A program made the translations under genes and the position numbers. The notes beneath the pieces are model-generated. The model searched no databases and was not told the origin of the DNA. It saw only the letters and a program-made list of their open reading frames with translations. Below are positions 1 through 59,806 of a DNA stretch of 64,000 nt, piece by piece; position 1 is the first letter of the stretch; each line of letters starts with the position of its first letter. Origin of the DNA: a virus; the IMG/VR virus record IMGVR_UViG_3300045988_165974, positions 32,001-96,000 of that record, one strand, 5' to 3'.

Positions 1-353
1 TCAGTTTCTTCATCTGTTTCATAAGTTATTTCTGTACTTTCAGGAATTACTCCAATTGCTCTTTCTTCATAAAAAGTTCTTACTTCTAATCCTTCAGAGG
101 TTCTTGACAGTTTTAGATATATTTTATGTCCTCCAAAATCAATAGCCTCGTCATCTTCGTCTCTTTCTATGTATCCCACTATTGGAATATTTTTTAAACT
201 TTCTTTAGCATTTTCAATTGCATCTTCGGTAATATTAAGACCCTTGCTATTTTCCCCAGCATGGACAATTTGAAGTTTTACATTTTGGAATCTTGAATCT
301 TCATCTTCATTTGAGAAAAAAGTTAATTTACAATTTATATTTTTTGTTTCCAA
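1..353 (-). CDS. head-module protein, 5' part (gene continues past the window start)
   Basis: Open minus-strand frame from TTG at 353 (AGGAGGG just upstream) to nt 1. It has no stop in the window, so it is absent from the ORF track. It lies directly downstream of the portal gene. The scaffold/protease-like function is guessed from position only. Confidence 0.4.
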   Translation of the reverse strand, partial: METKNINCKLTFFSNEDEDSRFQNVKLQIVHAGENSKGLNITEDAIENAKESLKNIPIVGYIERDEDDEAIDFGGHKIYLKLSRTSEGLEVRTFYEERAIGVIPESTEITYETDEET

Positions 354-381
354 ATAGCACCCTCCTTTCTTCGGAGTTTAT

Positions 382-591
382 CTATTTAATATTTAATAGT
401 ATTTCCTTTATTTCCTCGTTTGACACTCCTATGAGAATATAAAGATATACTATTAAAAAGAAAATATTTACTAATGGTGTGAATATAATTAAACCTACTG
501 TCAATAGAGTTGCACATATGTTAGATTTGCTTTTCATCGGTATTTCATTTTCACTAGCAACATATCCTATTTTTAAACAAGTTGCAATCAC
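382..591 (-). CDS. small hydrophobic (membrane) protein
   Basis: 69-aa ORF. Most of it is one long hydrophobic run (TLLTVGLIIFTPLVNIFFLIVYLYILIGV). Confidence 0.3.
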   Translation of the reverse strand: MIATCLKIGYVASENEIPMKSKSNICATLLTVGLIIFTPLVNIFFLIVYLYILIGVSNEEIKEILLNIK

Positions 592-646
592 ACTTATTTG
601 TTGTTAGAATACATATCATTGCATATAATTTTCCCATATCATTCTC

Positions 647-829
647 CTATACAAACATAACATCCGTAAATAAAAATTTAGTTTTATCAGATAATTTAGA
701 AATTTTGTTTTTATCGTTTTCATAATAATAAAAAATATCATTATCTATTTTTTCAGATGTTATGTACTTAAAATTATAAAAATCTAATTCACTTTTATCT
801 CTTTTGTTTAATGCTACTATAAATTTCAT
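647..829 (-). CDS. hypothetical protein
   Basis: 60-aa ORF co-oriented with and packed against the portal gene. Confidence 0.3.
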   Translation of the reverse strand: MKFIVALNKRDKSELDFYNFKYITSEKIDNDIFYYYENDKNKISKLSDKTKFLFTDVMFV

Positions 830-839
830 CCAATCTCAC

Positions 840-2375
840 CTATTTTCCATTCTTTTCAGAATTAGATTCTCCTGTATCTGATTTAGAAGGTCTACCTCCT
901 TCATCTACTTTTGCAGAACTTGGAGTCTTATCACTCGAATCTTGATTTGAATCTGTACCACTTGTTTGATATGCACTTTCTAATGGTTTCATATCTTCGG
1001 CAACTTTTTCTAATTCTTCTATTTTAAGTGTATTCATAGCTCTAAGAGGAGTAAATCCCATTGTTGCAAAATATTTCCATTTAGAACCATATATAGTTAA
1101 ACCATCTTTTTCGTCCTTAGCCAATTGTCTCCAATTATGTTCAGTTGTTTTTACAAACTCTACCATCCAATTTCTAGTTTTTGAACTAGTTCTAAGTTCA
1201 TCATTTATCCAATTTTCTATTGATTTTTGAATAAATAATGGCAATAACACATCTACAGTTTCTCCATAACTTACTGCCTCTGTATTAGTTGAATTTCCAT
1301 TAAATATATCATTATTGATTCCTGCTGCATCATAAATAGTTTCTTTTACTTTATTAACATATTCAAGAGTTTTAGTTTGTGAATCACCTAATGTTATTTT
1401 TTCTAAAGGCATAGGAGTAGTAATTGCTCCACAACCTGTATTATTTAAGACTTTCTTTAAAGCTTCATGGAATTTTTGTAAAGTCTTTTTATCTAATTTC
1501 ATTCTACCTTTTTCATCGGTTTCTGCTTTTTGATATATTAAAATAAAGTTTTCTAATACTGCATTATTGTTTCGTAAATCTTCTAAATCTTCTAATGACA
1601 TTAAATTGTCAAATAAACTTGCAAAATAAGGAACTCCTTTTGTTCCCCAAACTTCTAATGAAAATGCAACTGCTTTATTATAATTACTTAAATCATACCA
1701 ACCATTATCAAAATTTTCATCATCAATTAATTGTCCATTAGTATATTTAATATATAGTTCCATAATTTCTTGAGGAAAATAGGCTAACTCTGTTGGAGAT
1801 ATGGCTGCTAAATTTATTTTATATCTTGAAACCATATTCCCAGTTTTGCTGCATATTTTACATAATTTATTAGGAATTTGTTGATATATAACACTATATC
1901 TATCCTTAATTATAAATAAAAAGATTTCTCCACAATCTAATATCTTTTCGGTAATCCATTTAGAATTATACTTTAAATTATATTTTTCTAATTCAGTAGC
2001 AGCCTTATATCTTGCCTCCCAAATATCTTCTTTTGTTTTATATTTACTTATATCTCTTGGAATTAAAAAATGGTCATATGTAAGAATTTTCGATTTGTAA
2101 TCTGTGAATTGTCTAACCATACCATTAGTATATTTAAATATTTCGGCTGCATCTTGCAATATTTCAATACTAGCAGTATTTGTTGGATTGGCTAAAGCTG
2201 TTCTTAATTGCTTTTTAGATATTTTTCTTCTTCTTGCTATTGAATCATATGTTGAGCCTATATATCCAACATTATTGTATACATAATTCGCAAAGGATTC
2301 GAATTCCTGTTTTTCAAAAGTAACTATATCACTTTCTGATTCGTTGATTTTCTTCTCTAAATCCAACTGATACAC
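840..2375 (-). CDS. portal protein (probable)
   Basis: 511-aa ORF starting 3 nt after the terminase large subunit stop. Its size and its Ser/Asp/Glu-rich C-terminal tail fit a portal. The GTG at 2375 overlaps the AGGAGG RBS, so TTG at 2366 is the likelier start. Confidence 0.65.
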   Translation of the reverse strand: MYQLDLEKKINESESDIVTFEKQEFESFANYVYNNVGYIGSTYDSIARRRKISKKQLRTALANPTNTASIEILQDAAEIFKYTNGMVRQFTDYKSKILTYDHFLIPRDISKYKTKEDIWEARYKAATELEKYNLKYNSKWITEKILDCGEIFLFIIKDRYSVIYQQIPNKLCKICSKTGNMVSRYKINLAAISPTELAYFPQEIMELYIKYTNGQLIDDENFDNGWYDLSNYNKAVAFSLEVWGTKGVPYFASLFDNLMSLEDLEDLRNNNAVLENFILIYQKAETDEKGRMKLDKKTLQKFHEALKKVLNNTGCGAITTPMPLEKITLGDSQTKTLEYVNKVKETIYDAAGINNDIFNGNSTNTEAVSYGETVDVLLPLFIQKSIENWINDELRTSSKTRNWMVEFVKTTEHNWRQLAKDEKDGLTIYGSKWKYFATMGFTPLRAMNTLKIEELEKVAEDMKPLESAYQTSGTDSNQDSSDKTPSSAKVDEGGRPSKSDTGESNSEKNGK

Positions 2376-2378
2376 CTC

Positions 2379-3490
2379 CTATGTTAAGAATACAAATGTA
2401 TCATCATCTGTGGTACTATTTGCATTTTCTTCTTCTTCTAGGTAGTCTGCTAAGAAGTTAGCATATCCAAGGCTAGAATATCTATCTTTTCTAGCTCTAC
2501 CTCTTTCTTTTATCTTGATGTATTTACCACCTTCAATACTATGGTCTAAATTTATAAGCTCATTAACTAAAGCTGTTGTTTGTAAAAATGGAGACATATA
2601 TTTAGCCTCTAATTCTGCTCTTAAATTAATATCTGTTATATCTCCTATCTTTTCTTCAAATATCATTTCCTTGGCATCTAAATGATTTAAAGGAAGTTCT
2701 ATTGTCTTATTCATAAGATTTTCTCTTAAACTCATAGCCACTTTATGATTTATTTCAGAATTTGGTTTCAATGAATATACAACAGGAAGGGAATTTCTTG
2801 CAGCAAATTCATCTACTGTATTGTCCTTATTAAAACAAGTAAAACCATCATACCAAACATCTCTTTCGTTATCATAATTGCTTTTTTGTAAATAACTCCA
2901 TACGGTTAACCCTAACCCTTGAGTATCTATTATCATATAATCTGCATCAAAATCATTAAATAATTGTTTTAATCTTATAGCTTGTGTTTCGGCTTCCATC
3001 CCATTATAACTTTCAATATTTACAACTATTCTTCTGAATTTTCCGTCAGAAGGAATTAATCTCATACAAGTATATACTGAGTTGTCATTTACAGAGCCTT
3101 TTGATAAAGCTATATCGGCAGATATTATTCTTATTTCTCCATTTAATTTTCTTAAATATCCTCTTTTATCTTTTTTCTTTTTCTTTTTATCCTCCATGTA
3201 CTCAATTGGAGTGGGAGGATAAAACATACTCTCTTGAGTTCTACAGTTATTGACAAATGAAGATTTAAAGAAAGCATCTTCTGATTCTCCATAGAATAAT
3301 CCACAATATTCCATAGCAAAACTTGCTTCTGTCATACTTTCTTTTTTCATTTCTCTTATTATTTTTTTCTTAGTTAATAATCCGTGGTCTAAACTACAAG
3401 TAAAAGGAATTGAACACATAAATGCATCTTCTCCTCTTACCATTGCATTTAAAACTTCCATACATTTAGCATAGCTCCAATGTCCTTTAT
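2379..3490 (-). CDS. terL: terminase large subunit, exon 4 (C-terminal/nuclease half)
   Basis: The frame continues from exon 3 across the junction ...LSSGW|YKGHWSYAKC. The four exons are 213+261+193+1112 nt, giving 593 in-frame codons. Confidence 0.8.
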
Positions 3491-4730
3491 CATATTGTTA
3501 TTAACCAATGGCTTTTTATCCATTGCTCTGGAGATTTCTCTCATTTGAAATTATCTTATCGGTTGGTCAATTCCAACCCAGATTGGCGTACATTTTTATT
3601 CTCTAATATTTATATGGCGAATATCGAATACTCTTGTTGATATTATATTCTGTGGAGGATGGCTATTCCCCAAACAGGTTCAATCAATACGCTCTACGAT
3701 ACTAATAACTCTTTAATTTTATTAGTTATCTCGGTATTTTCTTTTCTAATATTGAATTTATTTCTTTAACTTGTGAGTAATTAATCCTTATTAAATTAAT
3801 GTCATTCTTCTTACAAAAATTATTTTTTATGACATCATGCTTTTGTCTAATTTTAAATTTTTCTTTTCCTCCATAAAAATCGGTCGGTCTATAATGTTGT
3901 TCTCCATCAAATTCGATTGCAATATTAAAGTCATTTAAATAAAAATCAAAAGGGAGTGGACGAATATCTTTACAATACTTAAATTTATATTCTTTTTCAT
4001 ATTGTATATTATTCTTATCCAACCGTTCTGAAATTTTTATAACTCCAACACTTTCTTTTGATTGACAATTTGGACACTTTATTGTTTTCCCATTAAAATT
4101 TGAAAAAGCTCTAGTAAAAACACATCCACAATCTTCGTGTTTTAATGTTACTTTTCTTTGTGTATTAATTTCAATAATTTTAAATCCTTGATTATTTTTA
4201 TTTAAAACATTTTGCATATCTTCTATTGTTAATGTTTTATTTTTGCTTTCACATCTAGGACATATTACTTTTCTGTTTAAAAATCCTTTTAAATTTCTCT
4301 TAAAAACAAAATTACATTTCTTATGTTTTAAAGTTAAATAAGATTTATGAATACCATTGTATTCTAAATTAATTAATTCATAATCTTCTCCTATTTTTGA
4401 ATAAATATCTTCTAAAACTTTTTCAATAGGCTTGAACATTTTTGAGTTTGCATTTTCCTTAGAACAATCATTACATTGTATTTTATCTTGATTTTTAATG
4501 TTATAAAAATTTCTCTCAAAAATCTTTCCACATTTACATCTTAAAATTAATTTTTCAGAACCATTTTTATATTCTTTTGATAGCAACTCACAATCGGAAT
4601 TTTCTTCAATATAAGATTTTACTTGTTCATATGTAAATTTACTCATATTAACTCCTTTAAAGATTTTTACCGATATTACTCGATTACGGCTATAAGCACC
4701 CATATTTTACTTATAGCTAGGCAAAAGTTT
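3491..4730 (-). mobile_element. group I-like intron 3 of terL, carrying a homing endonuclease ORF
   Basis: The upstream exon ends in T and the intron ends ...TTAATAACAATATG (terminal G). A GC-richer structured core lies at 3491-3725, and its block at 3526-3563 is nearly identical to 6462-6499 in intron 1. Confidence 0.7.
3726..4703 (-). CDS. intron-encoded homing endonuclease: three Zn-ribbon repeats plus a DUF559/Vsr-like PD-(D/E)xK domain
   Basis: Repeated CxxC...CPxC units. C-terminal FDFYL..IAIEFDGEQH...K motif typical of Vsr/DUF559-fold nucleases. The ORF lies inside intron 3. Confidence 0.6.
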   Translation of the reverse strand: MGAYSRNRVISVKIFKGVNMSKFTYEQVKSYIEENSDCELLSKEYKNGSEKLILRCKCGKIFERNFYNIKNQDKIQCNDCSKENANSKMFKPIEKVLEDIYSKIGEDYELINLEYNGIHKSYLTLKHKKCNFVFKRNLKGFLNRKVICPRCESKNKTLTIEDMQNVLNKNNQGFKIIEINTQRKVTLKHEDCGCVFTRAFSNFNGKTIKCPNCQSKESVGVIKISERLDKNNIQYEKEYKFKYCKDIRPLPFDFYLNDFNIAIEFDGEQHYRPTDFYGGKEKFKIRQKHDVIKNNFCKKNDINLIRINYSQVKEINSILEKKIPR

Positions 4731-4923
4731 ACCATCCAGAACTTAAATATATCTCTTTGTTCTCTTCGATATATTTCTTCTTTAACATTGGATTATTTGC
4801 ATATTGAGGAAGACTTAAAAAACCTGGTTGTCTTGGATTTGTTAAGAAAGGTAATAAAACATCATCTAATATTTTTTGGTCTACCATTCTATATTCATCT
4901 ACAATCAAAATGTTGGCACGTTC
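4731..4923 (-). CDS. terL: terminase large subunit, exon 3 (Walker B)
   Basis: Encodes [13 protein letters not shown]... (Walker B ILIVDE). The junction DARG|ERAN with exon 2 is in frame. Confidence 0.8.
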
Positions 4924-6166
4924 CAATTTGTTATCCCATAAGCTCTTTATCTTATGGTTCTCATAAATTTCTTTATAAGTTCAGAGTACATTATCACTCT
5001 CATTTCATCTTAGCTCTCAATGAGTGTCGGAGGCTCTTGGAAGGATTATTGCTTTCATTTTGTCGCTCACCCTCTACTCGTTACGGACAATATTAGATAT
5101 TATTGCCCTCGGTATTACCACTACCCATTTTAGGGGTTAGGCTTTCTTACCAGTCTATCCCTCCTATTTCTAGGTTATATTTTTATGTACTTTCGACTAT
5201 GACCGATACACCCCGATTACGGCAATATGCACTTGAGAGTTTACATATTGCTAGGCTATTTGTAATATTTTGTTTGCTTTTATGTATTTTCTATCAAGAT
5301 AAATGGTTGCATTATCATACAATAAATGTACCAATTTCTTACATTCATTCTGTCGAGAAAAAGACAATTTATAACATGTATTGCTTAAATAAATTATTGA
5401 ATGTAATTCAAAATCTTTCTCCATTTTTTCTTTAATAAATTCAAAAATAGCTAAATTATTCCCTGCTATTGAGATATTAGGATATGATTTGTTTTTATTT
5501 TTCTTAAAACAATATGTACCATCTCCATCAATATACCCTCTTAGAAAATGTAAAAACAAAGTATTGTCTTCTATTCTTGGAAACACCTCTGAATAACTTT
5601 TATTTTGAACTATATTTTTATCTAATAAATCTAAATAAATTGATTTACTGTATACTCTAATAATGCAATTTACGCATTGTTTATTTCTAATTTTTTGGCC
5701 ATTTAAACGGTCAAGGGAATTATAATTACTAATTTTAGAATTAACTTTATAATAGTTATTAAAGTTTTTATTAAATTTATGTAAATGATTTATATCTTTA
5801 TAACTTAATTCTATTCCTAATTCATAGGTTCTATTTGAATGACTAATATATCCATCTGCATAAATAAATCCCAACCGATATGCTTTTTCTTCATTGTCAA
5901 TTTTATCAAAAAAACGTTGATTTCCTTTATCTTTATCAGAAATACTTTGTCTTAATTCTAGCTTGCCTTTTTGATAATCTATTGATTTTTCACTTCTTCC
6001 GATTAGTTTAGATAATTCTTTATTAGTATATTTTTTATAATTTTCTTTTAAAAATAAAATTTCTTCATCTTTCCGTTTTTTACTCACTTCGATTTCCTCC
6101 TAATTTTTTAAATTAGAAGGAATAAAGGCTTATACTCCTTTAAATTCCTAAGCAAACTTGAAAATA
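4924..6166 (-). mobile_element. group I-like intron 2 of terL, with a LAGLIDADG ORF
   Basis: The upstream exon ends ...AGAGGT and the intron ends ...GATAACAAATTG. A structured GC-richer core lies at 4924-5250. Confidence 0.7.
5251..6087 (-). CDS. LAGLIDADG homing endonuclease (double-motif)
   Basis: Two LAGLIDADG-type motifs (LGFIYADGYI and LRGYIDGDGT) in a 278-aa intron ORF. Confidence 0.85.
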   Translation of the reverse strand: MSKKRKDEEILFLKENYKKYTNKELSKLIGRSEKSIDYQKGKLELRQSISDKDKGNQRFFDKIDNEEKAYRLGFIYADGYISHSNRTYELGIELSYKDINHLHKFNKNFNNYYKVNSKISNYNSLDRLNGQKIRNKQCVNCIIRVYSKSIYLDLLDKNIVQNKSYSEVFPRIEDNTLFLHFLRGYIDGDGTYCFKKNKNKSYPNISIAGNNLAIFEFIKEKMEKDFELHSIIYLSNTCYKLSFSRQNECKKLVHLLYDNATIYLDRKYIKANKILQIA

Positions 6167-6427
6167 ACCTCTGGCATCTTGATTAGCTACAATAGCTTCT
6201 ATTCTACTTCCATTCCAAAATGTAATAGAAACCTCTTTACTATTAATCTGAATATCTTTAATTTCTTTTTGTAGAGCCTCGGATGTTTTATATAACTCTC
6301 CAATTATCTTATCTGTAATTATCTTTTGAGCTTGTTTCTTTCTCTTAGCTGCGACGATTATCTTTGTTCCTGGTTTTAAAGTGCAAATTAAAACTGAAAA
6401 AACTGAAATTAGCCACGTTTTGCCAAG
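6167..6427 (-). CDS. terL: terminase large subunit, exon 2 (Walker A)
   Basis: Minus-strand translation LGKTWLISVF...ANQDARG, 87 codons, with no ATG so it is not in the ORF track. It completes Walker A as CTRG|LGKTW. Confidence 0.8.
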
Positions 6428-7738
6428 CGATTGTTATTAACTGTAAGTTTTTTACCTTACACTCTGGAGGTTTCCCTCATTTGAAGTTATCTAATCGGTA
6501 TGTTAATTCATACCCAGTCTAGCATACACCTTCACCCTCGTTTAACGTTAGGAGATTAGATTTTACTCTATATCTAATAATTCTTTAAATTATTGTGTCG
6601 GAGGCTCGTGTTAGTATTATATTCTGCATAACAGTTTCAACTATAATGCGTTACGAATTCTAAATCCTTTTAAAGACTTAGTTCATCTCGGTATTAGCAT
6701 ATTTATTAATATAGAATCGAACAGTAGTATCACTAACATTCAATTCTTTTGATATTTCATCTATTGTATTATTCTTTTTAAAATACATGTCAATAATTTT
6801 ATTTTTTATTTTTGAAGTAATCTTTTGATTATAATTATAAGGATTAGAAACACCTCTAAGATAACCATTTACAGTACTACTAGGCAATTTTACAATATTT
6901 ATAATTTCACATTCTCTTAGTCCTTGTTCTTTTAATCTCATAACTTCATCATATTTTTTTAATCTTTCTTCATATGCTATTTGTTTTGTATTTCTATTTT
7001 CATATACAACCTTTTCTACAACACTTGAAGTATATCCTTCTGATGAAACTATTTCACAAATTCTCATACCACTATCATACAATTTTAAAATTTTTTCATT
7101 TCTTTCTTGTATAAGCTTCTTTTTCATTTTGTACATTAGTGGGTTTAATTCAGGATTTATATATTTAAAAATATTTCCTCTCGCAATTTTATCAATTTGA
7201 GATTTTGAGGTATTAAAAATTTTAGCAATTTCTTTTCTATCCATTAAGTTATATATTAAAAGTTTAATTCTTCTTATATCAGATTCAGATAGTTTGGAAT
7301 GTTTCATTCTTTTAGTATTACTTAACTTGATTCTACTTTCTATTGACATAGTTCCACCACCTTCTCCTCCTTCGGTAAGATTATACCCAAAATTTGGATT
7401 AGCAGTATTGAATTTATCAATATAAAACATTTCTTTATCATTTAATTCTTCTTTAGTTGTCTCTTCTAGTAATTCAAAAATAAAACTTTCTTTTCCATAT
7501 TTATCAAAAGCATTTTGTAAATGACAATTATAATGTTTACCTCTTCTTAACAGACCTTTATGTGCTAATATTCTGTCTTTAACATGAATTGATTGACCTA
7601 TGTATTTTTTATTATCTTTTATATTTGTTATACAATAAATTCCTACCATATTCCCTCCGATTACATTAATAAATTTAGCCTCCACCGATTCCCCCCGATT
7701 TATTACCCTTATATTTCTATAAGGGAGGGCATTGGTCT
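6428..7738 (-). mobile_element. group I-like intron 1 of terL, with a GIY-YIG ORF
   Basis: Exon 1 ends ...AGGGGT and the intron ends ...TTAATAACAATCG. It shares its 3' tail and core block with intron 3. Confidence 0.7.
6678..7685 (-). CDS. GIY-YIG homing endonuclease with C-terminal HTH repeats
   Basis: N-terminal GIYCITN...KYIGQS (GIY-YIG) and a conserved R/E/N core. The C-terminal half has repeated helix-turn-helix-like units. It is intron-encoded. Confidence 0.85.
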   Translation of the reverse strand: MEAKFINVIGGNMVGIYCITNIKDNKKYIGQSIHVKDRILAHKGLLRRGKHYNCHLQNAFDKYGKESFIFELLEETTKEELNDKEMFYIDKFNTANPNFGYNLTEGGEGGGTMSIESRIKLSNTKRMKHSKLSESDIRRIKLLIYNLMDRKEIAKIFNTSKSQIDKIARGNIFKYINPELNPLMYKMKKKLIQERNEKILKLYDSGMRICEIVSSEGYTSSVVEKVVYENRNTKQIAYEERLKKYDEVMRLKEQGLRECEIINIVKLPSSTVNGYLRGVSNPYNYNQKITSKIKNKIIDMYFKKNNTIDEISKELNVSDTTVRFYINKYANTEMN

Positions 7739-10193: not shown

Positions 10194-10330
10194 TGGAAAC
10201 AGTTGGATTTGAACCAACACCCTCTTCTTGACCTATAAGATTTAATTTCTTCTTTTAAATATATTGCTGTATGTGTCCCATAATCCCACTAGACACATAA
10301 TTATTTGTGCTACCATTACACCATGTTTCC
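10194..10330 (-). ncRNA. tRNA-like gene with about 64 extra nt between D arm and T arm
   Basis: Acceptor GGAAACA/TGTTTCC, D arm GTGT-AATGGTA-GCAC and T arm GTTGG-TTCAAAT-CCAAC are intact. The middle holds the hairpin ATGTGTC..GGACACAT plus ACAGCAAT. No standard anticodon arm is present. Confidence 0.6.
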
Positions 10331-10476
10331 ATATTCGAGAGAGGAAATTATTCCTCTCTGTTTGTATATCTTGGAGGTTTTAAAATGATGAATAATAATT
10401 ACAATACACTTATTTATATTTTCAAAATGTTTTGTGGTTGAAAAATTAAATTAATATTGCTGTATGTGTATTTATA

Positions 10477-11991
10477 TTATACAGTTATGCAAGAATATCT
10501 TTCTTGATTTACTGCTTCCATCATTAATTCATACCCTGTTTTACCTGTTAATATTATTTCAAATGTAGATGGTGAAAATCCACTTACATATGAAATTCTT
10601 CCACTTCCTAGCATTGGAATATTATTTTGTCTTGCATCGACATTCCAATATATTAAATGTGGTATTTCATATCCATGTGATTGCCATTTTTTAGCTATTG
10701 ATTCCATTAATGTTTCATGTGAGCTATATTTTTGTTCACTTCTACTACTTCTCCAGCTCCAACAATTGAATTCATCAACTCCATTGTCAAATTCCATATC
10801 TGAAATTATAGCAATATTTTGTGGCAAATCTTCTTGAGATAAATTATTTTTTAATGCAGTATTTAATACTAAATCAAATACAGATTCAATATTTGTATTT
10901 TCACATAAATTAGTATCGTATATTCTTCTAACTTTATCTACAAAGTCAATTCCTTCAACTTCTACTAATCTAGCCTTTCTACTAAAACTTATGTAATGGT
11001 CTTTAAATGGACCTTTATTTCTTTCTGCACAATAAATTCCAAGTGAAATTGCTACATTTATTGGAGTCCCCCACATAGAACCTGATGTATCTACAACAGG
11101 TAATAAACTACAAGATTTCCCATTAAAGTAATCTTTTAAATTATCCCAATATTTATTTACAACATTTCTTTCAGTAGTTGAAGTTGAGAAACTATGTCTT
11201 AGTCCAATAGCTTTTTCTACGACTTCATAAGGATATAATGTAGCTGCATTTACAGTAGTCTTATCACTATTCATAAAAGCACTATATCTTTCTTCACAAT
11301 GTCTTTCAAAAGCTTTTCTATATTTAAGTCCTGCTTTACTTGGAAGTTTATCAAATTCTATTTCATGCCAATTATTAGAACTCATTTGTGTTTCAACTAA
11401 TCTTATATGATTTCTTAATTTCACTAATGTTTTTCTATATTTTTTAGCATTCATATTCAACTTTTTAGCAAAATATTTAGCTTTAAGTTTAGTATTAACA
11501 CTACTTGCTCCAAGTGAAGGCATCCACTTAGCTAATAAAGATATTGGTTTATTATTGTTCATATCTTTAAGGTCTGTTTCTAATTGATTTTTAACAATAG
11601 ATAAAACTTCTTTTTCGAACTTAGAACCTTTATATCCTAATTCTAATAAATCGTCCCATCTCCCAAACTCTGCAAAATAAATTAAATTCTTTTTTAATGC
11701 TTTAGAATTATTTTTTTCTAACCATTTTGTTATAACTCTAAATAATCTTCTTTCACCTTGTCCTCCTCGGACATCTCTAAAATAAAATAATAATTTCATT
11801 GATATTAAAGGATTTTCTTTATATGCTTTTTTAAATTGTAAAATTACATCTTCTTCACTACGATTTCTCATAGCTCCCCCAAAAGCGAAAAAATCTAAAC
11901 AATTACTAAAAGTAGTAACATGAGTAGTAGCTCCGTTTTCAGTTAAAGTATAATTTTCTTCTTCTTTTAAATTTCTTAAAAGTTTATTCAT
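10477..11991 (-). CDS. vWA-domain protein with an N-terminal DUF2828/TROVE-like region
   Basis: MIDAS motif VVDTSGSM in the C-terminal half. The N-terminus (TENGA..T..N.LDFF..GGAMR...LFYFRDVRGGQGERRLF) matches my memory of DUF2828 proteins, which are Ro60-like (TROVE + vWA). Confidence 0.55.
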   Translation of the reverse strand: MNKLLRNLKEEENYTLTENGATTHVTTFSNCLDFFAFGGAMRNRSEEDVILQFKKAYKENPLISMKLLFYFRDVRGGQGERRLFRVITKWLEKNNSKALKKNLIYFAEFGRWDDLLELGYKGSKFEKEVLSIVKNQLETDLKDMNNNKPISLLAKWMPSLGASSVNTKLKAKYFAKKLNMNAKKYRKTLVKLRNHIRLVETQMSSNNWHEIEFDKLPSKAGLKYRKAFERHCEERYSAFMNSDKTTVNAATLYPYEVVEKAIGLRHSFSTSTTERNVVNKYWDNLKDYFNGKSCSLLPVVDTSGSMWGTPINVAISLGIYCAERNKGPFKDHYISFSRKARLVEVEGIDFVDKVRRIYDTNLCENTNIESVFDLVLNTALKNNLSQEDLPQNIAIISDMEFDNGVDEFNCWSWRSSRSEQKYSSHETLMESIAKKWQSHGYEIPHLIYWNVDARQNNIPMLGSGRISYVSGFSPSTFEIILTGKTGYELMMEAVNQERYSCITV

Positions 11992-12058
11992 ATCATCTCT
12001 CCAATCAAGATACCTTTGTGTTTCCCTTTTGCTGATTGTATCTTTATATTATTTTTTA

Positions 12059-12132
12059 TGGCAGACTAAAATGGATTTGAACCATTATCTTCAAGATTCG
12101 GAGTCTCGATGTTTTACTTAAACCATTAGCCT
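12059..12132 (-). tRNA. tRNA-Arg (CCG)
   Basis: Acceptor AGGCTAA/TTAGTCT, anticodon arm CGAGA-CTCCGAA-TCTTG, T arm AATGG-TTCAAAT-CCATT, CCA encoded. Confidence 0.75.
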
Positions 12133-12453
12133 ATAAAAATTTCTAGCTAGAAAATAATTAAAATTAATTAGATTAAAATTCATTATACTTGGTTAACTCC
12201 CTGATTTCTTTTAGTTGTGTATCAGGGGAAAACAACAAGTAATTACTATATTAACTTAATAGGATATTATACTTCCGACATTCTTATTAATCGCTATCGG
12301 ATGTGCGATTTATTTTGTTTGCAAACATCTTTAGTGTAGTTCCCGTAAAAAACTTACTTGCTATAAAAAAAACTTTCAGAAATCACTACACATGACAGAT
12401 TATGTAGGTGGGGTCTGTCTCCATACACCATACAAACGAGATGATTTTTTCTT

Positions 12454-12519
12454 TGGACTTAATCGGAATTGAACCGATAACATCATGCCTGATAATTTTC
12501 CCCATTAAACTATAAGTCC
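12454..12519 (-). ncRNA. tRNA-like gene lacking an anticodon (4-nt loop)
   Basis: Acceptor GGACTTA/TAAGTCC, a D arm, and T arm ATCGG-TTCAATT-CCGAT. The anticodon arm is only TATCA-GGCA-TGATG. Total length is 66 nt. Confidence 0.55.
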
Positions 12520-12525
12520 ATATAA

Positions 12526-12597
12526 TGACCTATGAGGGAATTGAACCCTCGCCCTCACCGTGAAAGGGTGATGTCTTAGCCACTTGACTAATAGGTC
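12526..12597 (-). tRNA. tRNA-Glu (TTC)
   Basis: Acceptor GACCTAT/ATAGGTC, anticodon arm TCACC-CTTTCAC-GGTGA, T arm GAGGG-TTCAATT-CCCTC. Confidence 0.8.
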
Positions 12598-12602
12598 ATG
12601 CT

Positions 12603-12679
12603 TGGTCTAAGTAGAGGGACTCGAACCCCCAGTCTCCACATCCCAAATGTGGCGGTCTACCAAATTAACCTATACCTAG
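12603..12679 (-). tRNA. tRNA-Pro (TGG)
   Basis: Acceptor CTAGGTA/TACTTAG, anticodon arm CCACA-TTTGGGA-TGTGG, T arm GGGGG-TTCGAGT-CCCTC, A73 and an encoded CCA. Confidence 0.8.
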
Positions 12680-12851
12680 ATATTAGAGTCTAGCATCAAA
12701 ATACTAGGCTTAATCATAACAATAATTTTTAATCAAGACTCTATTTAATACTCGTTTTTAACAGAAACGTAATTAATAAATTGCTGTTAGAGTCTTTTTA
12801 TAAATATTTAGCCAGAAAACCCATTCCCTTTAGGTGATGGGATGAATGGCG

Positions 12852-14114
12852 TTAAATTGCTACTGTCTGTACCATTTGTGATGTTCTTGCAGTGACTCGC
12901 TTACAGTTACTTAACTTTGGCGTTTTAAAACCTCTTGGCATTGCTGAAAAAACAATCTTATTCCCATCAATGTCCATAAGAATTGCATATCCTGTAAACA
13001 TTCTTCCCTTAATAAAGTATTCCTTGCCAAAGTATTTTACTTTGTCATATTTTCTAAAACCGTATATTTTACCAGTTGTAATAGGCTGTTCTGAACGAAC
13101 ACCTTTTGTTTTTCGAAAATCACCATCAGAAACACATTTCTTTTTGTAAAGATTACTCCTTACATAAAAAGCATTCCCTTGTGTTGATATAGTACAAGCA
13201 TCATAATAATGTTTTTTGTCTATCCCTAAATGTAAACGATTAGTCTTTGTCACATATCCAAAAGTTTCAATAGCATTTGGATAGAATCTGAAAAGCTGCT
13301 TACGGATAGAATTCATTTGCGTAGCATATTTAAGATTACCCTTAACTTTACCGCTTAATTTAGGGTTAATCTTCTCACTATGTAAATCTTTATGACAGGT
13401 GTGACATAAAGTAATTAAATTACTTTCTTCGTCAGAACCACCTTGACTACGAAATACAATATGATGAACTTCTAATTTGCTATCCTTATGCTTGCCTTTA
13501 CAATATTGACAAGTATAGTTATCTCTATTAAGTACCATTGCTTTTGTATTTTCAAATCCATAGTTAACACCTTTCTGATACCCCCAATGTCTAACCTTGG
13601 AATTTGCAAGTATTGGATTTTTCATTAAATGCATATCAAACTTCCCTGTTTCAAATACTAAAGTTGTAATTGGTAAAATAGATTTAATATATTCTATTTC
13701 CTTTACATGACTATGAAGTTTGCTCTGCATTGTAGGACTAAATCTATCCTTTCTAATAGAATTTGCACGATTTAACCATCTTGCTTTTCTATAACGAGTT
13801 TTACGATTTCGTCTGTTTCTACGATACTTTGCTCTTTGTGTCATTTTGTTAGTAATGTCGTTTCTTACAACAATTTCCGACATATAAACAATATTTCCTT
13901 TTTCATCTGATACTGCTGTTCCTATTGTTCCACTACCTGTATCTACACCTAAAATTAAATCTTGAGTGTAGTTTGTACTGTCATACAATAGTTTAATTGT
14001 AAACGGACAACGACTAACAACTTTAGCTTTTCTATCTTTTAACAGATGTCTGATTTTCCCATACCTATTCGTAGGCATAAGTGGTTGTCCATCTTTGTTT
14101 AATACATATACCAT
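12852..14114 (-). CDS. iscB: IscB RNA-guided nuclease (RuvC + HNH; OMEGA system)
   Basis: N-terminal PLMP motif (DGQPLMPT). RuvC-I GVDTGSGTIG. Arg-rich bridge helix RRNRRNRKTRYRKARW. RuvC-II LVFETGKFD. HNH CQYC...HHIVFRSQGGSDEESNLITLCHTCH. RuvC-III HYYDAC. 420 aa. Confidence 0.9.
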   Translation of the reverse strand: MVYVLNKDGQPLMPTNRYGKIRHLLKDRKAKVVSRCPFTIKLLYDSTNYTQDLILGVDTGSGTIGTAVSDEKGNIVYMSEIVVRNDITNKMTQRAKYRRNRRNRKTRYRKARWLNRANSIRKDRFSPTMQSKLHSHVKEIEYIKSILPITTLVFETGKFDMHLMKNPILANSKVRHWGYQKGVNYGFENTKAMVLNRDNYTCQYCKGKHKDSKLEVHHIVFRSQGGSDEESNLITLCHTCHKDLHSEKINPKLSGKVKGNLKYATQMNSIRKQLFRFYPNAIETFGYVTKTNRLHLGIDKKHYYDACTISTQGNAFYVRSNLYKKKCVSDGDFRKTKGVRSEQPITTGKIYGFRKYDKVKYFGKEYFIKGRMFTGYAILMDIDGNKIVFSAMPRGFKTPKLSNCKRVTARTSQMVQTVAI

Positions 14115-14425
14115 AAACAGATATTCCTTTCATTAAATTAAATTAATAACTCAGCTACACAAGTAACTGTTATGCGTACTATACTGTACTGTTACCATAC
14201 AGTTGTTTCGACTTCAACTCGACAATGATATAAAGGCTTTTTACATATACATTACAAGGCTGTTCTTACTCTGACCTAACTTAAATGTATACGATAGAGC
14301 AATGGTCTGTTGCGTCAACCAAAGGTATCATGACTTAAATATCGTAGCCATCATTTCTGTGGCTTAGTCTGGTGAACCATTTAACAGAAGCCCATAAGCT
14401 TTAGCTTGTGGGTAGTTCACTTAAT
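14115..14425 (-). ncRNA. putative IscB omega-RNA scaffold
   Basis: About 300 nt directly 5' of iscB, locally GC-richer and ORF-free. It has several helices, e.g. GTGAAC..GTTCAC and CCCACAAGCT-AA-AGCTTATGGG. The position matches published IscB omega-RNAs. Confidence 0.65.
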
Positions 14426-14695
14426 TATTCCTGGAAGGAGATTTTTCAATTACAATGCACAAATATTATTAATAAAATCCTTTTTTTATCATAAACATAA
14501 TTGCTGTATGTGCATTTAATTATATTAACTTTAAGAAGGTACTTATCAAGACACTAAACATTATAAATATGAAACTTCCTAGAATTGTTCAATTTATTTT
14601 GAGGATTTGAACCTCTAAAGCACTTGTTTATTGACTTATTTACCTATTTGAATTAATTGCTGTAAGTGTCTTTTGAATGTATATTTTTAGAACAG

Positions 14696-14811
14696 GACGG
14701 GAAGTAGGAGTCGAATCTACAACCTACGGCTTAAATGGCAAATTAAAATGCTGTTAGTGTATCCCTTCTATACACATATTACGTTGCTCTACCCGTTGAG
14801 CTATTCCCGTC
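14696..14811 (-). ncRNA. tRNA-His-like gene with about 45 extra nt and degenerate anticodon and T arms
   Basis: G-1 plus ACGGGAA/TTCCCGT plus C73 (His signature). D arm GCTC-AACGGGTA-GAGC. Then hairpin GTGTAT-AGAAGGG-ATACAC followed by TAACAGCATT. Only 3 bp of anticodon stem remain. Confidence 0.5.
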
Positions 14812-14818
14812 ATAATGT

Positions 14819-14936
14819 TGCCGAAGAATAGATTTGAACTATTATCCTATAGCTTCCCTGTTTGAAATTGCTGCTTATGTATTTATCAATACATCTATTT
14901 ATTGGCTATTGCTCCAACCATTTGAGCTACTTCGGC
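14819..14936 (-). ncRNA. tRNA-like gene with a 51-nt anticodon loop
   Basis: Perfect acceptor GCCGAAG/CTTCGGC, D arm GCTC/GAGC, anticodon stem ATAGC/GCTAT and T arm AATAG-TTCAAAT-CTATT. The loop holds hairpin ATGTATT-GATA-AATACAT plus AAGCAGCAAT. Confidence 0.65.
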
Positions 14937-15002
14937 ATATTCTAGGGTAGAATTCCTCTACCCCATTTTTTAAACAAACAAAGAAAGAAACAGTAATAAC
15001 TT

Positions 15003-15043
15003 TGAGGTCTGTAGGATTTGAACCTACTGAAACCTTCGACCTC
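15003..15043 (-). ncRNA. acceptor/T-arm minihelix (tRNA top half only)
   Basis: GAGGTCG-AAGGTTTCA-GTAGG-TTCAAAT-CCTAC-AGACCTC-A. There is no D arm and no anticodon arm. Confidence 0.4.
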
Positions 15044-15205
15044 ACATTACTAGGGAAATTAATCCCTAGCATTCAAAAAGGGGAACAAAGAAATCAAACA
15101 ATGCACTATTTACATTCTTGCCAGTCATGTGGCATTTTTCAAAATCCAATTTGTTTTATTTTCTTCTCTTGTATATGTAATAATTGCTGTGAGTGCATTT
15201 ACCCC

Positions 15206-15490
15206 TTATATTTCTTTAGTTAATCTTTCTTTTGTACTCTTAGTGAATTTTATATAAGGTACTATTTTATCAGGTGTTTCATATTCATAACAACCTATTT
15301 GATTATCTATTTTACCTGCTCTACCTTTTCTTTCTTTAGTACCTATTTTTATACCACAAATTATTACTTCATCTCTATTTTCGATTACTCTATTTAATAA
15401 TCTTTCTAATCCGTCTACTACCTCTGCTGCTCTAACTTGTGTTATATCTAGTTCACTAGCTATTTCTTTTAACATATCTTTTTTTGTCAT
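15206..15490 (-). CDS. HU/IHF-family DNA-binding protein
   Basis: MTKKDMLKEIASELDITQ...GIKIGTKERKGRAGK...PYIKFTKSTKE follows the HU/IHF pattern. The ATG at 15490 has the best spacing from the AGGAG RBS; the track ORF starts at 15508. Confidence 0.75.
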   Translation of the reverse strand: MTKKDMLKEIASELDITQVRAAEVVDGLERLLNRVIENRDEVIICGIKIGTKERKGRAGKIDNQIGCYEYETPDKIVPYIKFTKSTKERLTKEI

Positions 15491-15592
15491 ATTCATTTCT
15501 CCTATCATTAAAAATTTTTAGAACTTCATTTCGGTAAGGAAAATACCGTCTTTTATCGTTCTTACATTTTTAATAAGGAGTTTTACTACCTT

Positions 15593-16786
15593 TTAACAAT
15601 GTTGCTTTGCACTATGTTTTTTATGTCTTTCCTCTGTCTCGCATTTTTTACACTTCGGTCTATATCTATCTTTGTTTTTTGAAAAGTGATGTATTAGTTT
15701 AGTTTCTCCACATTTAGAGCATTTTTTCCATGTTCCTTTTACAACATAAGTGTAATACCGTTCTCGGTACTCCTCCCAATATTTCTTCTCTATTACCTTA
15801 CAAATACTATTTATTGTTATGTTAACCAATTGTTGTTTCATATGTAAGATTTCTATTATCTGATAAGGTTTTACATTTCTTCTGTATAGATTTAAAACAT
15901 TCTGTTGATTCTTTGTAAAAGTACACCTACTAAGTACATCTTCAAAATCCATCATGACACAAACCATATCTGTATCATCTATTCCTTCATACTTCATTCT
16001 AAGTAAGCTTCTTATCTCTTTTTCTGTCGGAATATCAATTTCTTTAAACATCTGTGAACCAGTTGGGACTAAAGGACTTTTAAATGTTATTGGTCTTTCT
16101 AGCAATAATTTGCCATTATTTAAATCGTCTTTAACTCCATGAACTAGATAACTAAGTTCCATAGTTCCGTTTCCACTTTTCATTTTATCAATTAAGTGGA
16201 CATATAAATCGTAATAATTTTTTAAGACCTCGTGTTTTTCAATATCTTTCTTTTCAAACACAACATCTTTTACTTTATTATAATTATGTTCTACTGCTTG
16301 AAATATTGGAAAAGCTTCCCCATTATATGTTTCTTTATTATTTATATAAGGAACTCCTCCATTTCCTATCGCTAATTGATTCATAACTTTTTCTTCTTTG
16401 CAAGCTCTTCTAAACAGCTCTTTACTATTATAGATTTTATACTTTAATTCTTTCTTTTGTTGAACCTCTCCGTCTATTATGTGTTCCTTAGAATTAAGAA
16501 TATAAGTACCTAACCTCTCTAAATAGATTGCTACATTAGAAGTTGAATATAAGCTATCCTCTTTTGATAAGTGAATTTTTATTTTCTGTCTTTCTTCTGT
16601 ATCAAAAAGTTCCTCAAAGAATTCGTCATAAAACTCTTTTCCATTTATCTCATAAGTGCCTAACATATCTTTCACATATTTAACTCTATTGTCACTTCTT
16701 TGGATTGTATAGTCTAATTCATAATAATCTCTGATTGACTTCCCACACAGTTTTCCATAAAAATTGTTATTATGAAATTCATTCAA
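15593..16786 (-). CDS. hypothetical protein with a sigma-region-4-like HTH and a C-terminal Zn ribbon
   Basis: 397-aa ORF behind two TTGACA-17-TATAAT promoters. It carries an HTH-like LSRCTFTKNQQNVLNLYRRNVKPYQIIEIL and CSKCG...CKKC. Confidence 0.5.
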   Translation of the reverse strand: MNEFHNNNFYGKLCGKSIRDYYELDYTIQRSDNRVKYVKDMLGTYEINGKEFYDEFFEELFDTEERQKIKIHLSKEDSLYSTSNVAIYLERLGTYILNSKEHIIDGEVQQKKELKYKIYNSKELFRRACKEEKVMNQLAIGNGGVPYINNKETYNGEAFPIFQAVEHNYNKVKDVVFEKKDIEKHEVLKNYYDLYVHLIDKMKSGNGTMELSYLVHGVKDDLNNGKLLLERPITFKSPLVPTGSQMFKEIDIPTEKEIRSLLRMKYEGIDDTDMVCVMMDFEDVLSRCTFTKNQQNVLNLYRRNVKPYQIIEILHMKQQLVNITINSICKVIEKKYWEEYRERYYTYVVKGTWKKCSKCGETKLIHHFSKNKDRYRPKCKKCETEERHKKHSAKQHC

Positions 16787-16822
16787 TCATGTCCTCTTCT
16801 CTGTTGCCAACTTTATATCTTT

Positions 16823-16851
16823 ATTATAACAATTTTATTTCAGTATGTCAA
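16823..16851 (-). promoter_or_regulatory. sigma70-type promoter
   Basis: Minus strand reads TTGACA, a 17-nt spacer, then TATAAT. It lies about 35 nt upstream of the start at 16786. Confidence 0.6.
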
Positions 16852-16910
16852 CTTATTTTTTATTTAGTTGTTTTATTTAATTTTCTGATGTTGTTTAACT
16901 TTATACTTAC

Positions 16911-16939
16911 ATTATATATATTTAATATTAGTCTGTCAA
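16911..16939 (-). promoter_or_regulatory. sigma70-type promoter
   Basis: Minus strand reads TTGACA, a 17-nt spacer, then TATAAT. Confidence 0.55.
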
Positions 16940-16958
16940 CTACTTTTTTAAATATTTT

Positions 16959-17348
16959 CTATTTTTTCTTAAATATTCCTGCATAATCTACATCAATAAT
17001 TTCAAACAAAGGTAAATTGTTATGTATTTTTGAGTCAACTTCAATAAAAGTACTATTTATGATTTTACATTTATATTTTGTTTTTATATAACGCTTCTCA
17101 GACTCTCCAGGACTTGCTATGTTTGTGTCTATAATTATATCATAGATAATATCTTCCATTGATATACAACTCTTTAGGCATTGAATTACAAGTTCATATG
17201 ATTTAATAGTTAAAAATTCTACATTAATTTCTAAATATAATTTGTCATCCATTGAATATACTTTGTAAAAATTTGGAGATGGTATATCAATTCCATTTAT
17301 ACAAATATTCTTTATATCTCGCAAAATAAACATTTCTCTATTATCCAT
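16959..17348 (-). CDS. hypothetical protein
   Basis: 129-aa ORF, co-oriented and tightly packed. Confidence 0.45.
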   Translation of the reverse strand: MDNREMFILRDIKNICINGIDIPSPNFYKVYSMDDKLYLEINVEFLTIKSYELVIQCLKSCISMEDIIYDIIIDTNIASPGESEKRYIKTKYKCKIINSTFIEVDSKIHNNLPLFEIIDVDYAGIFKKK

Positions 17349-31971: not shown

Positions 31972-32025
31972 ATTTGTAAACCTACCGAGGGCGGTCCAAA
32001 GTCCGTGTAAAAGGTGATGGCAAAT
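31972..32025 (+). ncRNA. twister ribozyme candidate (C1)
   Basis: P1 ATTTG/CAAAT, T|AA, P2 ACCT/AGGT, P4 GCGG/CCGT with loop TCCAAAGT, then GATGG. Predicted cut at 31977/31978. Confidence 0.7.
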
Positions 32026-45733: not shown

Positions 45734-46903
45734 TTGCTAAAGAGTTACAAAACGGAAATAAACCCAACACAGGAACAAATACAAAAGATAAATAAAACAA
45801 TTGGAACTTGTAGATTTATTTATAATTTTTACATCGCTCATAATAAAGAACTCTATAACAAGGGCGAAAAATTTATGACGGCAAAATCATTCAGTGTTTG
45901 GTTAAATAATGAATTTCTACCAAATAATCCGAATTATTCATGGATAAAAGAAGTAAGTTCTAAATCAGTTAAAAAATCTATGGAAAATGCTTATACTGCT
46001 TTTAATAAGTTTTTTAAGAAACAAAGTAAGTTTCCTAGATTTAAGAAAAAGAATAAATCTGATGTAAAAATGTACTTTGTAAAAAATAATCCAAAAGATT
46101 GTTTCTGTGAAAGACATAGAATTAATATTCCTACTCTTGGATGGATTAAATTAAAAGAAAAGGGATATATTCCTACTACTAAAGACGGATATGTAATTAA
46201 AAGTGGTACGGTTTCTTGCAAAGCTGGAAGATATTATGTATCAGTTTTAATTGATACTTCTGATACAGAAAAACCACAATTAAATGACTTTGGATTAGGA
46301 ATTGATTTAGGTGTTAAAGAATTTGCGGTAATTAGTAATGGAACTATAAAGAAAAATATAAATAAAACTGCTAAATTAAAAAAAATAGAAAAACAATTAA
46401 AAAGAGAACAGCGTTGCCTATCGAGAAAATACGAAGGATTAAAGAAACGCAACAATAAAATGAAAGGAGAAGCCACTAGGCAAAATATTAAAAAACAAGT
46501 CTTAAAGGTACAGAAACTTCATCAAAGAATGGATAATATTCGTACTGATTATATCAATAAATGTGTAAATGAGATAGTGAAAACCAAGCCATCTTATATT
46601 ACCATTGAAGATTTGAATGTAAAAGGAATGATGAAGAATAAACATCTCTCTAAGGCAGTTGCTTCACAGAAATTCTATGAATTTAGAACTAAACTTGAAA
46701 CAAAATGCAAAGAATTAGGAATTGAATTAAGAATTGTAAATAGGTGGTATCCATCGAGTAAATTGTGTCATGAATGTGGTTGTATCAATAAAGATTTAAA
46801 ACTTTCTGACAGAGAATATATTTGTGGATGTGGATACCATGCTGATAGAGATTATAATGCAAGTCTTAATTTGAGAGATGCAATATCCTACAAAATAGCA
46901 TAA
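45734..46903 (+). CDS. tnpB: TnpB RNA-guided nuclease (IS200/IS605 OrfB family)
   Basis: RuvC D (GIDLGVKEFAV), E (ITIEDLNVKGM), Zn finger CHECG...CGCG, and DRDYNASLNL. TTG start. Confidence 0.9.
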   Translation: MLKSYKTEINPTQEQIQKINKTIGTCRFIYNFYIAHNKELYNKGEKFMTAKSFSVWLNNEFLPNNPNYSWIKEVSSKSVKKSMENAYTAFNKFFKKQSKFPRFKKKNKSDVKMYFVKNNPKDCFCERHRINIPTLGWIKLKEKGYIPTTKDGYVIKSGTVSCKAGRYYVSVLIDTSDTEKPQLNDFGLGIDLGVKEFAVISNGTIKKNINKTAKLKKIEKQLKREQRCLSRKYEGLKKRNNKMKGEATRQNIKKQVLKVQKLHQRMDNIRTDYINKCVNEIVKTKPSYITIEDLNVKGMMKNKHLSKAVASQKFYEFRTKLETKCKELGIELRIVNRWYPSSKLCHECGCINKDLKLSDREYICGCGYHADRDYNASLNLRDAISYKIA

Positions 46904-47090
46904 ACAAGCATTTGTAGGTATGTACCGATGGCTTTAGTCGGGAATTTACGACTGTGGACTGTACAAGAACTTGTGAGTAGTGTATTACTTTGTAATCACA
47001 AAAGCATACAGGATGAAACAGTAAGAAAAGTTTGTGAAAACTTTCAATATCTCGATATGGGTATATTTGTCCATATTTTGAGTGGCAGGA
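46780..47090 (+). ncRNA. putative TnpB omega/reRNA scaffold and right end
   Basis: ORF-free, GC-richer stretch overlapping and following the tnpB 3' end. Hairpin CCGATGGCTTTAGTCGG (46925-46941) and AATTTACGAC..TGGA, also seen after the second tnpB. Ends are uncertain. Confidence 0.45.
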
Positions 47091-57911: not shown

Positions 57912-58538
57912 ATGAAATATTACTCAATAGGAGAATTTGCGAACCAAATAGGCAAGACGGTTCAAACACTTAGAAATTGGGATAATAAAGGAACTTTAAA
58001 ACCGCATCATGTAACAGTAGGCGGAACAAGGTATTATTCTCAAGAACAACTTAATCATTTCTTAGGACTTAAAAATATGGAATCTAAAAATAAAAAAATT
58101 ATTGGTTATTGCAGAGTTAGTTCTTATAAACAAAAAGACGACCTTGAAAGGCAAATTGAAAATGTAAAAACATATATGTATGCAAAAGGTTATCAATTCG
58201 AGATTATTTCTGATATTGGAAGTGGAATAAACTATAATAAAAAAGGATTAAATCAATTAATAGATATGATTACTAATTCAGAAATAGATAAGATAGTAGT
58301 CCTTCATAAAGATAGATTAATTAGATTTGGATATGAATTAATAAAAAATCTTTGTGATAAGTATGGGACTACTATTGAAATTATAGATAATACCGAGAGG
58401 ACAGAAGAACAAGAATTAGTTGAAGATTTAATTCAGATAATCACTGTATTTAGCTGTAGACTTCAAGGTAAAAGAGCTAATAAAGCTAAGAAAATGATTA
58501 AGGAGTTGATAGAAGATGATACTTGCAAAGAAAGTTAG
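57912..58538 (+). CDS. tnpA: IS607-type serine recombinase TnpA (MerR-like HTH + resolvase domain)
   Basis: YYSIGEFANQIGKTVQTLRNWDNKG (MerR-type HTH). IIGYCRVSSYKQKDDLERQ (catalytic Ser). Confidence 0.9.
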   Translation: MKYYSIGEFANQIGKTVQTLRNWDNKGTLKPHHVTVGGTRYYSQEQLNHFLGLKNMESKNKKIIGYCRVSSYKQKDDLERQIENVKTYMYAKGYQFEIISDIGSGINYNKKGLNQLIDMITNSEIDKIVVLHKDRLIRFGYELIKNLCDKYGTTIEIIDNTERTEEQELVEDLIQIITVFSCRLQGKRANKAKKMIKELIEDDTCKES

Positions 58539-59631: not shown

Positions 59632-59806
59632 TATCATTAATAAGATAATGCTAATATGTAGGATGCGTTGTATCCAAATTTACGCCCTTGGAGAGTTATA
59701 TCAAACGAAAGTAGGTTGTTATTTATAATTTCCAAAATCGAATTCGTAGAACAGGGAATTAAACAAGATTTATAGATATTTATAGATTTTTGGCAACGGA
59801 GTAAAT

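Follow-up and report, generated by a model that had tools for sequence, protein, structure and literature searches.

Is an RNA-guided nuclease in a phage genome a passenger, or has the phage put it to its own use? This question is raised by a locus in a 64,000-nucleotide stretch of viral DNA (positions 32,001 to 96,000 of the IMG/VR record IMGVR_UViG_3300045988_165974; the whole stretch is called the window here). A previous inspection of the letters alone (the sequence-only reading) had noticed an IscB–omega-RNA element and had left hitch-hiking and co-option side by side. The evidence presented here favours an ordinary selfish element, because its guide and target-adjacent motif (TAM) match only the vacant allele and because its presence is a precise polymorphism. 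Very probably, positions 12802-14420 constitute an intact, non-autonomous ISC/HEARO-type insertion sequence (IS) of the IS200/IS605 family, which encodes IscB and is carried as a selfish passenger, not as a phage-adapted weapon. Its ends, its TAM, intact nuclease motifs, a conserved omega-RNA fold and a precise empty allele were all observed. For cutting, repair-based spread and the need for the transposase TnpA we rely on the established mechanism of the family. Coordinates are those of the window, and the + strand is the top strand of the transposon; L-numbers denote the contigs compared and P-numbers proteins.

Precise ends and an empty site

The 19 nt upstream of GTGAAC were searched against metagenome contigs. 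This identified two contigs of the same phage from independent assemblies, L052 and L053, in which the flank continues straight into ATAAAAAGACTCTAACAGCAATT. In the alignment with L053, window positions 15861..14421 are followed by 12801..12602 without gap or duplication. The empty site reads ...TTCCAGGAATAATTAA joined directly to ATAAAAAG..., with the junction between ...GGAATAATTAA and ATAAAAAGAC. Compared with these contigs, the window has the order TTTAT, left end (LE), right end (RE), flank, with zero bases duplicated. The precise empty site thus places the ends at 12802 and 14420, and shows an insertion without target-site duplication (TSD) next to the TAM TTTAT (Table 1). DNA homology to one relative (L007-L015) starts exactly at GTGAAC, position 14420. 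GTGAAC is also the start of homology in independent copies, and the guides beyond it differ at every insertion site. The filled junctions are identical in the window and in six further contigs (L001-L006).

On the top strand, TTTAT (12797-12801) is followed by the LE with a hairpin 18 nt in, and the RE hairpin lies 8 nt from the end, before the flank. Read in the orientation of IscB, the LE is followed by ATAAA at a distance of 17-18 nt from the hairpin in the window, L059, L033/L035, L036, L065 and L040. It therefore recurs in six independent insertions, some of which carry tnpA. The ATAAAA of the site under study fits NWRRNA, the TAM reported for OgeuIscB.

Both hairpins, which had been described as two similar same-strand structures with a CTTTAG centre resembling IS200/IS605 subterminal hairpins, fold as DNA and covary in relatives (for example CCTATGG.../...CCATAGG in L007). 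On the RNA strand the RE hairpin forms the first stem-loop of the omega-RNA. Imperfect subterminal hairpins on the same strand without terminal inverted repeats, insertion 3′ of a short motif, no TSD and a precise empty site are all features of IS200/IS605 (ISC) elements. The family to which the sequence-only reading had assigned the element is supported.

Table 1. Position, strand and characteristics of the features discussed
Feature	Position	Strand	Characteristics
Whole IscB insertion sequence	12802..14420	top strand +, LE 12802, RE 14420	1,619 bp; from alignment with empty-site contigs and start of homology at GTGAAC
Left end and subterminal hairpin (CCCATTCCCTTTAGGTGATGGG)	LE 12802..12851; hairpin 12820-12841	+	18 nt from cleavage point; DNA fold
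Right-end subterminal hairpin (CCCATAAGCTTTAGCTTGTGGG)	14391..14412	+	8 nt from RE terminus; fold z = -3.0
TAM TTTAT	12797..12801	+	directly 5′ of LE; equals ATAAA 3′ of protospacer in IscB orientation; abuts insertion point in L052/L053
iscB ORF, 420 aa	12852..14114	-	intact RuvC-I/II/III and HNH motifs
omega-RNA scaffold	14115..14420	-	HEARO match 14207-14420; 3′ extension with conserved hairpin up to iscB start
Guide segment (predicted)	14421..14440	-	RE-flanking phage DNA ...CTCC-TTCCAGGAATAATTAA; last 16 nt are 14436-14421
ACAGCAATT motif, upstream copy	14499..14507	-	outside IS; one boundary of 1,720-bp segment missing in L016/L070-L073
ACAGCAATT motif, downstream copy	12779..12787	-	outside IS; other boundary of 1,720-bp indel
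ACAGCAAT(T) sites	15182-15190, 14655-14663, 14499-14507, 12779-12787, 10456-10463, 10263-10270	-	
TnpB, 389 aa, without transposase	45734-47024	+	RAGATH-18 RNA 46951-47024, 74.9 bits
IS607-type unit	57912-59758	+	MerR helix-turn-helix and resolvase serine recombinase 57912-58538; TnpB, 371 aa, 58516-59631; RAGATH-18 59685-59758, 67.6 bits

IscB and its omega-RNA

The open reading frame (ORF) encodes a complete IscB. In Pfam, its product matched RRXRR (1.9e-52) and HNH (7e-13), and with the NCBIfam equivalog NF040563 (guided_IscB) it scored 338.2 bits over residues 2-308, well above the cut-off of 175 bits. The best matches among solved structures were IscB chains (OgeuIscB 7UTN/7XHT, E ~6e-43), with the catalytic residues in register. 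The PLMP motif is located at residue 11, and all catalytic residues are present: D58 and E155 (the RuvC-I Asp and the RuvC-II Glu), H302 and D305 (RuvC-III), and H217/H218, N232 and H245 (HNH). ORF, NF040563 match and OgeuIscB alignment are in accordance with the previous description of a 420-aa protein with PLMP, split RuvC, bridge helix and HNH, and a loss of catalytic residues that might have been missed was not found. Two proteins identical to the window IscB (P0001 and P0002) are encoded in contigs of ~139 kb. Assignment to a type II CRISPR-Cas9 system is not indicated, as the protein has 420 aa and reached 40 bits with the Cas9d model against a cut-off of 375. No CRISPR repeat array was found within 12700-14560.

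The ORF-free, helix-rich stretch of about 300 nt located 5′ of the ORF was proposed to encode the omega-RNA. The HEARO model search suggested for it was run with Rfam and matched RF02033 at 14420-14207 (-) with 103.9 bits over the full model (1-211), above the gathering score of 83. In an alignment of 10 independent copies (290-325 nt each, from the GTGAAC start to the iscB ATG), 29 of the 57 consensus pairs showed compensatory changes.

The guide and its target

Positions 14440-14421, which adjoin position 1 of the HEARO model on its 5′ side, read ...CTCCTTCCAGGAATAATTAA. The predicted guide ends exactly at the transposon boundary set by L052/L053. The guide sequence quoted in the sequence-only reading was right, and its coordinates (14426-14445) were 5 nt off; the correct position is 14421-14440 (-). 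An identical guide segment is present in L001-L006 and also in both empty alleles (L052/L053). Every independent copy of the element has a different sequence at this position, as expected if the guide is copied from the flanking DNA.

The 16-mer guide had no second target in the window at up to three mismatches, and the 19-mer gave zero matches in IMG/VR. Among metagenomes, 13 exact 19-mer matches were detected, and ATAAA adjoins in only two of them, the empty sites of the phage in L052 and L053. The other 11 were considered as targets and rejected; they lie in unrelated loci without ATAAA and were taken as chance matches. Therefore, apart from the vacant allele of this locus, no target could be identified. 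A guide that appears, from its sequence, to be aimed only at the vacant allele favours the standard selfish design for retention or homing, with no sign of co-option.

Alleles of the locus in the phage population

The filled allele was present in seven genomes (the window and L001-L006), with the same junctions and 2-3 differences per 1,619 nt. The flanks of these genomes differ by ~1% near the element and by 2.4% further out, and the IS is ~10-fold less diverged than its flanks. The flank difference closest to one end is an apparent change in poly-A length at 66 nt, and at the other end it is a substitution at 19 nt. Low divergence is thus limited to the IS and the cassette in which it resides, and a co-conversion tract around the IS was dismissed. 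The cassette is a short, non-coding, 92-nt segment of the tRNA island (14421-14498 plus 12788-12801, -). Between the window and L053 it differs at 1 of 99 positions, compared with a difference of 8.8% in the 491 nt next to it. The low divergence of cassette and IS is only suggestive and would be compatible with recent horizontal movement or with selection.

In a third allele, 1,720 bp are missing, corresponding to one ACAGCAATT repeat, the 92-nt cassette and the IS. It was found in L016/L070, L071, L072 and L073 from four samples, with the junction within the 9-nt ACAGCAATT repeat. The search with the conserved downstream flank retrieved the L016 contig only. L016 had been taken as an empty site and was dropped; L052/L053 show the 92-nt cassette to be phage DNA. 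Upstream, L016 differs from the IS-bearing L002 at 0/1499 and 1/491 positions, so that the 1,720-bp change must be recent. This widespread cassette-less allele has no protospacer and no TAM, and the repeats containing its junction are those on either side of the target. If the element acted as a gene drive (see Discussion), an IscB cut followed by microhomology-mediated repair could have produced this deletion.

Since the only perfect target with a TAM sits in sibling phages of the same species, cleavage would strike competitors. The phage might thus have turned the element into an RNA-guided weapon of its own, directed at competing phages or the host, and keep it because cutting benefits the phage. 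The near invariance of the element in at least seven contigs and the many other homing-type nucleases of this phage would fit. We nevertheless regard this as unlikely. The guide is mere flank made by the insertion, and with its intact LE and RE and the position of its TAM the element is built like a mobile IS. Guide searches in the window, IMG/VR and metagenomes revealed no host or foreign target. Strains free of the IS are common (at least six samples), so the element is dispensable. At the level of sequence alone, a benefit in competition and homing look the same. About equally unlikely, we think, is an immobile, silent relic that was acquired once by recombination and then inherited or deleted, with IscB and omega-RNA idle in the phage: TnpA was not found in the window, one and the same site is occupied in all IS-bearing contigs and loss is possible by deletion between the flanking 9-nt repeats, yet the ORF is not truncated and lacks none of the catalytic residues, the omega-RNA scores above the Rfam threshold, the ends are intact, the precise TSD-free empty allele is a signature of Y1-transposase chemistry and the IS is far less diverged than its flanks.

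Transposase and relatives of the element

A tblastn search with the TnpA proteins of close relatives detected no Y1 (HUH) TnpA in the element or in the 64-kb window, in agreement with what had been noticed before. The element is hence a non-autonomous member of its family. This is the usual situation, as tnpA is found near only ~1.5% of iscB genes (Meers et al., 2023). In the relatives L034, L036, L040 and L065, which agree with the element in terminus, hairpin type and TAM, a Y1 tnpA begins at the iscB stop codon. The clade thus includes a compatible transposase that could act in trans. Thousands of relatives share 80-85% identity with the element, and the organism labels of the close ones are mostly Lachnospiraceae metagenome-assembled genomes (MAGs). 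Close relatives with other guides occupy other sites, some of them with tnpA. For L007, L059 and L065, which are 80-85% relatives, PHROG scans of the neighbouring genes were essentially empty, and their ORFs share only IscB with the window. The L065 locus (positions 1-6278) is an AT-rich, 6-kb region with many small ORFs, in which two iscB genes occur together with a tnpB and a truncated Y1 tnpA.

The phage tRNA island

The window is phage DNA. Its products include a DnaB-like helicase and a primase, phage sigma factors and ClpP, as well as a portal protein and a fragment of a terminase. GIY-YIG and LAGLIDADG endonucleases are also encoded. The genes around the element encode tRNAs and tRNA-like RNAs, without exception from the minus strand, and the earlier description of an element embedded in a phage tRNA island was thus accurate. 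Because the surrounding tRNA genes are all on the minus strand, the element is co-oriented with upstream transcription, an orientation toward which iscB elements are biased (Meers et al., 2023). IscB-like proteins occur in 83 deposited phage records, each with <60% identity, so the location in a phage is not new in itself. Megablast of positions 11000-17000 against deposited phages gave no match; the phage is thus absent from INPHARED.

A ATTGCTGT motif had been reported near both ends of the element. Its positions (12780-12787 and 14500-14507) were verified, and its association with the ends was not. ACAGCAAT occurs on the minus strand in six copies, all at 10270-15190 in the tRNA island and none elsewhere in the 64 kb, mostly with RCAC-W-Y before it. 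The two copies are 14 nt and 78 nt outside the true ends and the motif recurs island-wide, so ATTGCTGT/ACAGCAAT was rejected as a transposon end or target motif. One ACAGCAAT copy and one GCAGCAAT variant are located within anticodon-loop insertions of two tRNA-like genes.

Two tRNA-like genes at 14819-14936 (-) and 10194-10330 (-) have normal acceptor, D and T arms and 50-66 nt in the anticodon loop. They were not called by ARAGORN and scored 53 and 44 bits with the Rfam tRNA model. Each anticodon-loop insert consists of a small hairpin followed by (A/G)CAGCAAT. Between the tRNA blocks, 10477-11991 (-) encodes a 504-aa DUF2828/DUF7788 protein (PHROG 850, 'RNA-binding protein'), for which the adjacent tRNA-like RNAs with extended anticodon arms might be candidate ligands. 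A further tRNA at 12454-12519 (-) was recognized by Rfam (44.9 bits) and missed by ARAGORN. The tRNA block 12074-12606 shows 78-84% identity to L001-L006 and L016, strains that are otherwise 98-99% identical. This divergence suggests cassette exchange within the tRNA island. Within 2379-7685 (-), a LAGLIDADG ORF (5251-6087) and a gene for a GIY-YIG homing endonuclease (6678-7685) are found close to a terminase RNaseH-like fragment (2379-3461); homing elements may have interrupted the packaging genes.

The two TnpB genes

Two tnpB genes of the window had been noticed, one of them described as solo. The 389-aa TnpB within 45734-47024 has no transposase. The second (58516-59631) is not solo; it follows a serine-recombinase TnpA (57912-58538) and overlaps it, forming an IS607-type unit. 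Both TnpBs have a RAGATH-18 RNA on their 3′ side, and RAGATH-18 RNAs are assigned to IS607-family TnpBs (2026 review). A third hairpin of the IscB-element type, proposed to follow the first tnpB (46925-46941), was not recovered by folding; the RNA of this TnpB is of the RAGATH-18 (IS607) type. TAGGAGG is located just 5′ of the start of the 389-aa TnpB and resembles AGGAG, the TAM reported for IS607 TnpBs, and could just as well be a ribosome-binding site. In L002, which is the same phage from another sample, positions 11258-12705 contain an extra 418-aa TnpB gene between clpP and a yonG-like gene, which is present neither in the window nor in L001. It replaces ~44 nt and is not a clean insertion.

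Discussion

The element inserted directly 3′ of TTTAT in the non-coding cassette of the tRNA island without duplicating its target. If it is a selfish passenger, read-through or local transcription would yield an omega-RNA whose 5′ guide, TTCCAGGAATAATTAA, is copied from the RE flank. IscB with this RNA is predicted to cut phage genomes in which the flank joins ATAAA directly, i.e. the vacant site. Such a site could arise by TnpA-mediated excision or be supplied by an IS-free sibling during co-infection. Recombinational repair from an IS-bearing genome would reinstate or spread the element. Transposition would depend on a Y1 TnpA provided in trans by the host, by another element or by an unseen part of the phage genome.

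Several points weigh against this reading. Upstream of the omega-RNA only weak sigma-70-like matches are present, and the 5′ end of the guide is a predicted one. A source of TnpA was not found in the inspected 64 kb of the ~139 kb genome. The nearest sampled relatives are too distant (~85% identity) to point to a donor. As for the low IS divergence, it is based on essentially two lineages and may in part be due to purifying selection. The alleles themselves do not discriminate between gain and precise excision.

IscB/omega-RNA elements are well characterized, and the element itself is therefore not surprising. The omega-RNA is encoded upstream of iscB and bounded by the RE, and the TAM is located 5′ of the LE; TTCAT was determined for GstIscB and TTTAT for GstTnpB2 (Meers et al., 2023). 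GstIscB (ISGst) of Geobacillus stearothermophilus, described in the same study, is likewise a non-autonomous IS200/IS605-type element without tnpA in cis, with an omega-RNA of the HEARO type that is encoded 5′ of iscB and delimited by the RE, and with the guide outside the RE. Both have an AT-rich pentanucleotide TAM 5′ of the LE (TTCAT there, TTTAT here) and the catalytic Asp at position 58. Unlike the chromosomal GstIscB, the element described here resides in a phage genome, with natural filled, empty and deleted alleles. OgeuIscB with its omega-RNA (7UTN, 7XHT) shares the order PLMP, RuvC-I, bridge helix, RuvC-II, HNH and RuvC-III (E 6e-43), and the ATAAAA of the window satisfies its NWRRNA TAM. 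However, OgeuIscB has 496 aa instead of 420 aa, and the C-terminal TAM-interacting region of the window protein (beyond ~310) is not aligned by sequence. The ISC2Y-type relatives from Lachnospiraceae MAGs (L034 Lachnospira, L036 Blautia and L065) have IscB proteins that are 79-82% identical, the GTGAAC RE terminus, the same hairpin type and ATAAA after the LE. They are autonomous, with a Y1 tnpA overlapping the iscB stop codon, which the phage copy lacks. By analogy, a comparison can be drawn from a 2026 review with SegB of phage T4, a free-standing homing endonuclease of the tRNA region. In both cases a nuclease gene is located in a phage tRNA cluster and could bias inheritance of the region. 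SegB recognizes DNA as a protein and is not a transposon, whereas recognition here would be RNA-guided, with presence or absence of the element as the discriminator.

That OMEGA transposons might home into the genomes of co-infecting phages has to date been raised as a theoretical possibility (PMC13565253). We tentatively suggest, as a possibility that is on balance doubtful, that the element acts, by non-restorative transposon homing, as a gene drive that is guided by RNA and operates between co-infecting phages. IS-bearing genomes would then cut and convert alleles of the L052/L053 type, and the cassette-less allele would be a drive-resistant deletion. If true, a gene drive would explain the near-identical IS and 92-nt cassette across lineages whose flanks differ by 1-9%. 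One phage species in gut metagenomes presents filled, precisely empty (with a perfect protospacer and TAM) and target-deleted alleles at one locus. The locus supplies a compact 420-aa IscB together with its native guide and TAM, both predicted from the sequence, and the empty site of the sister phages makes RNA-guided homing between phages directly testable.

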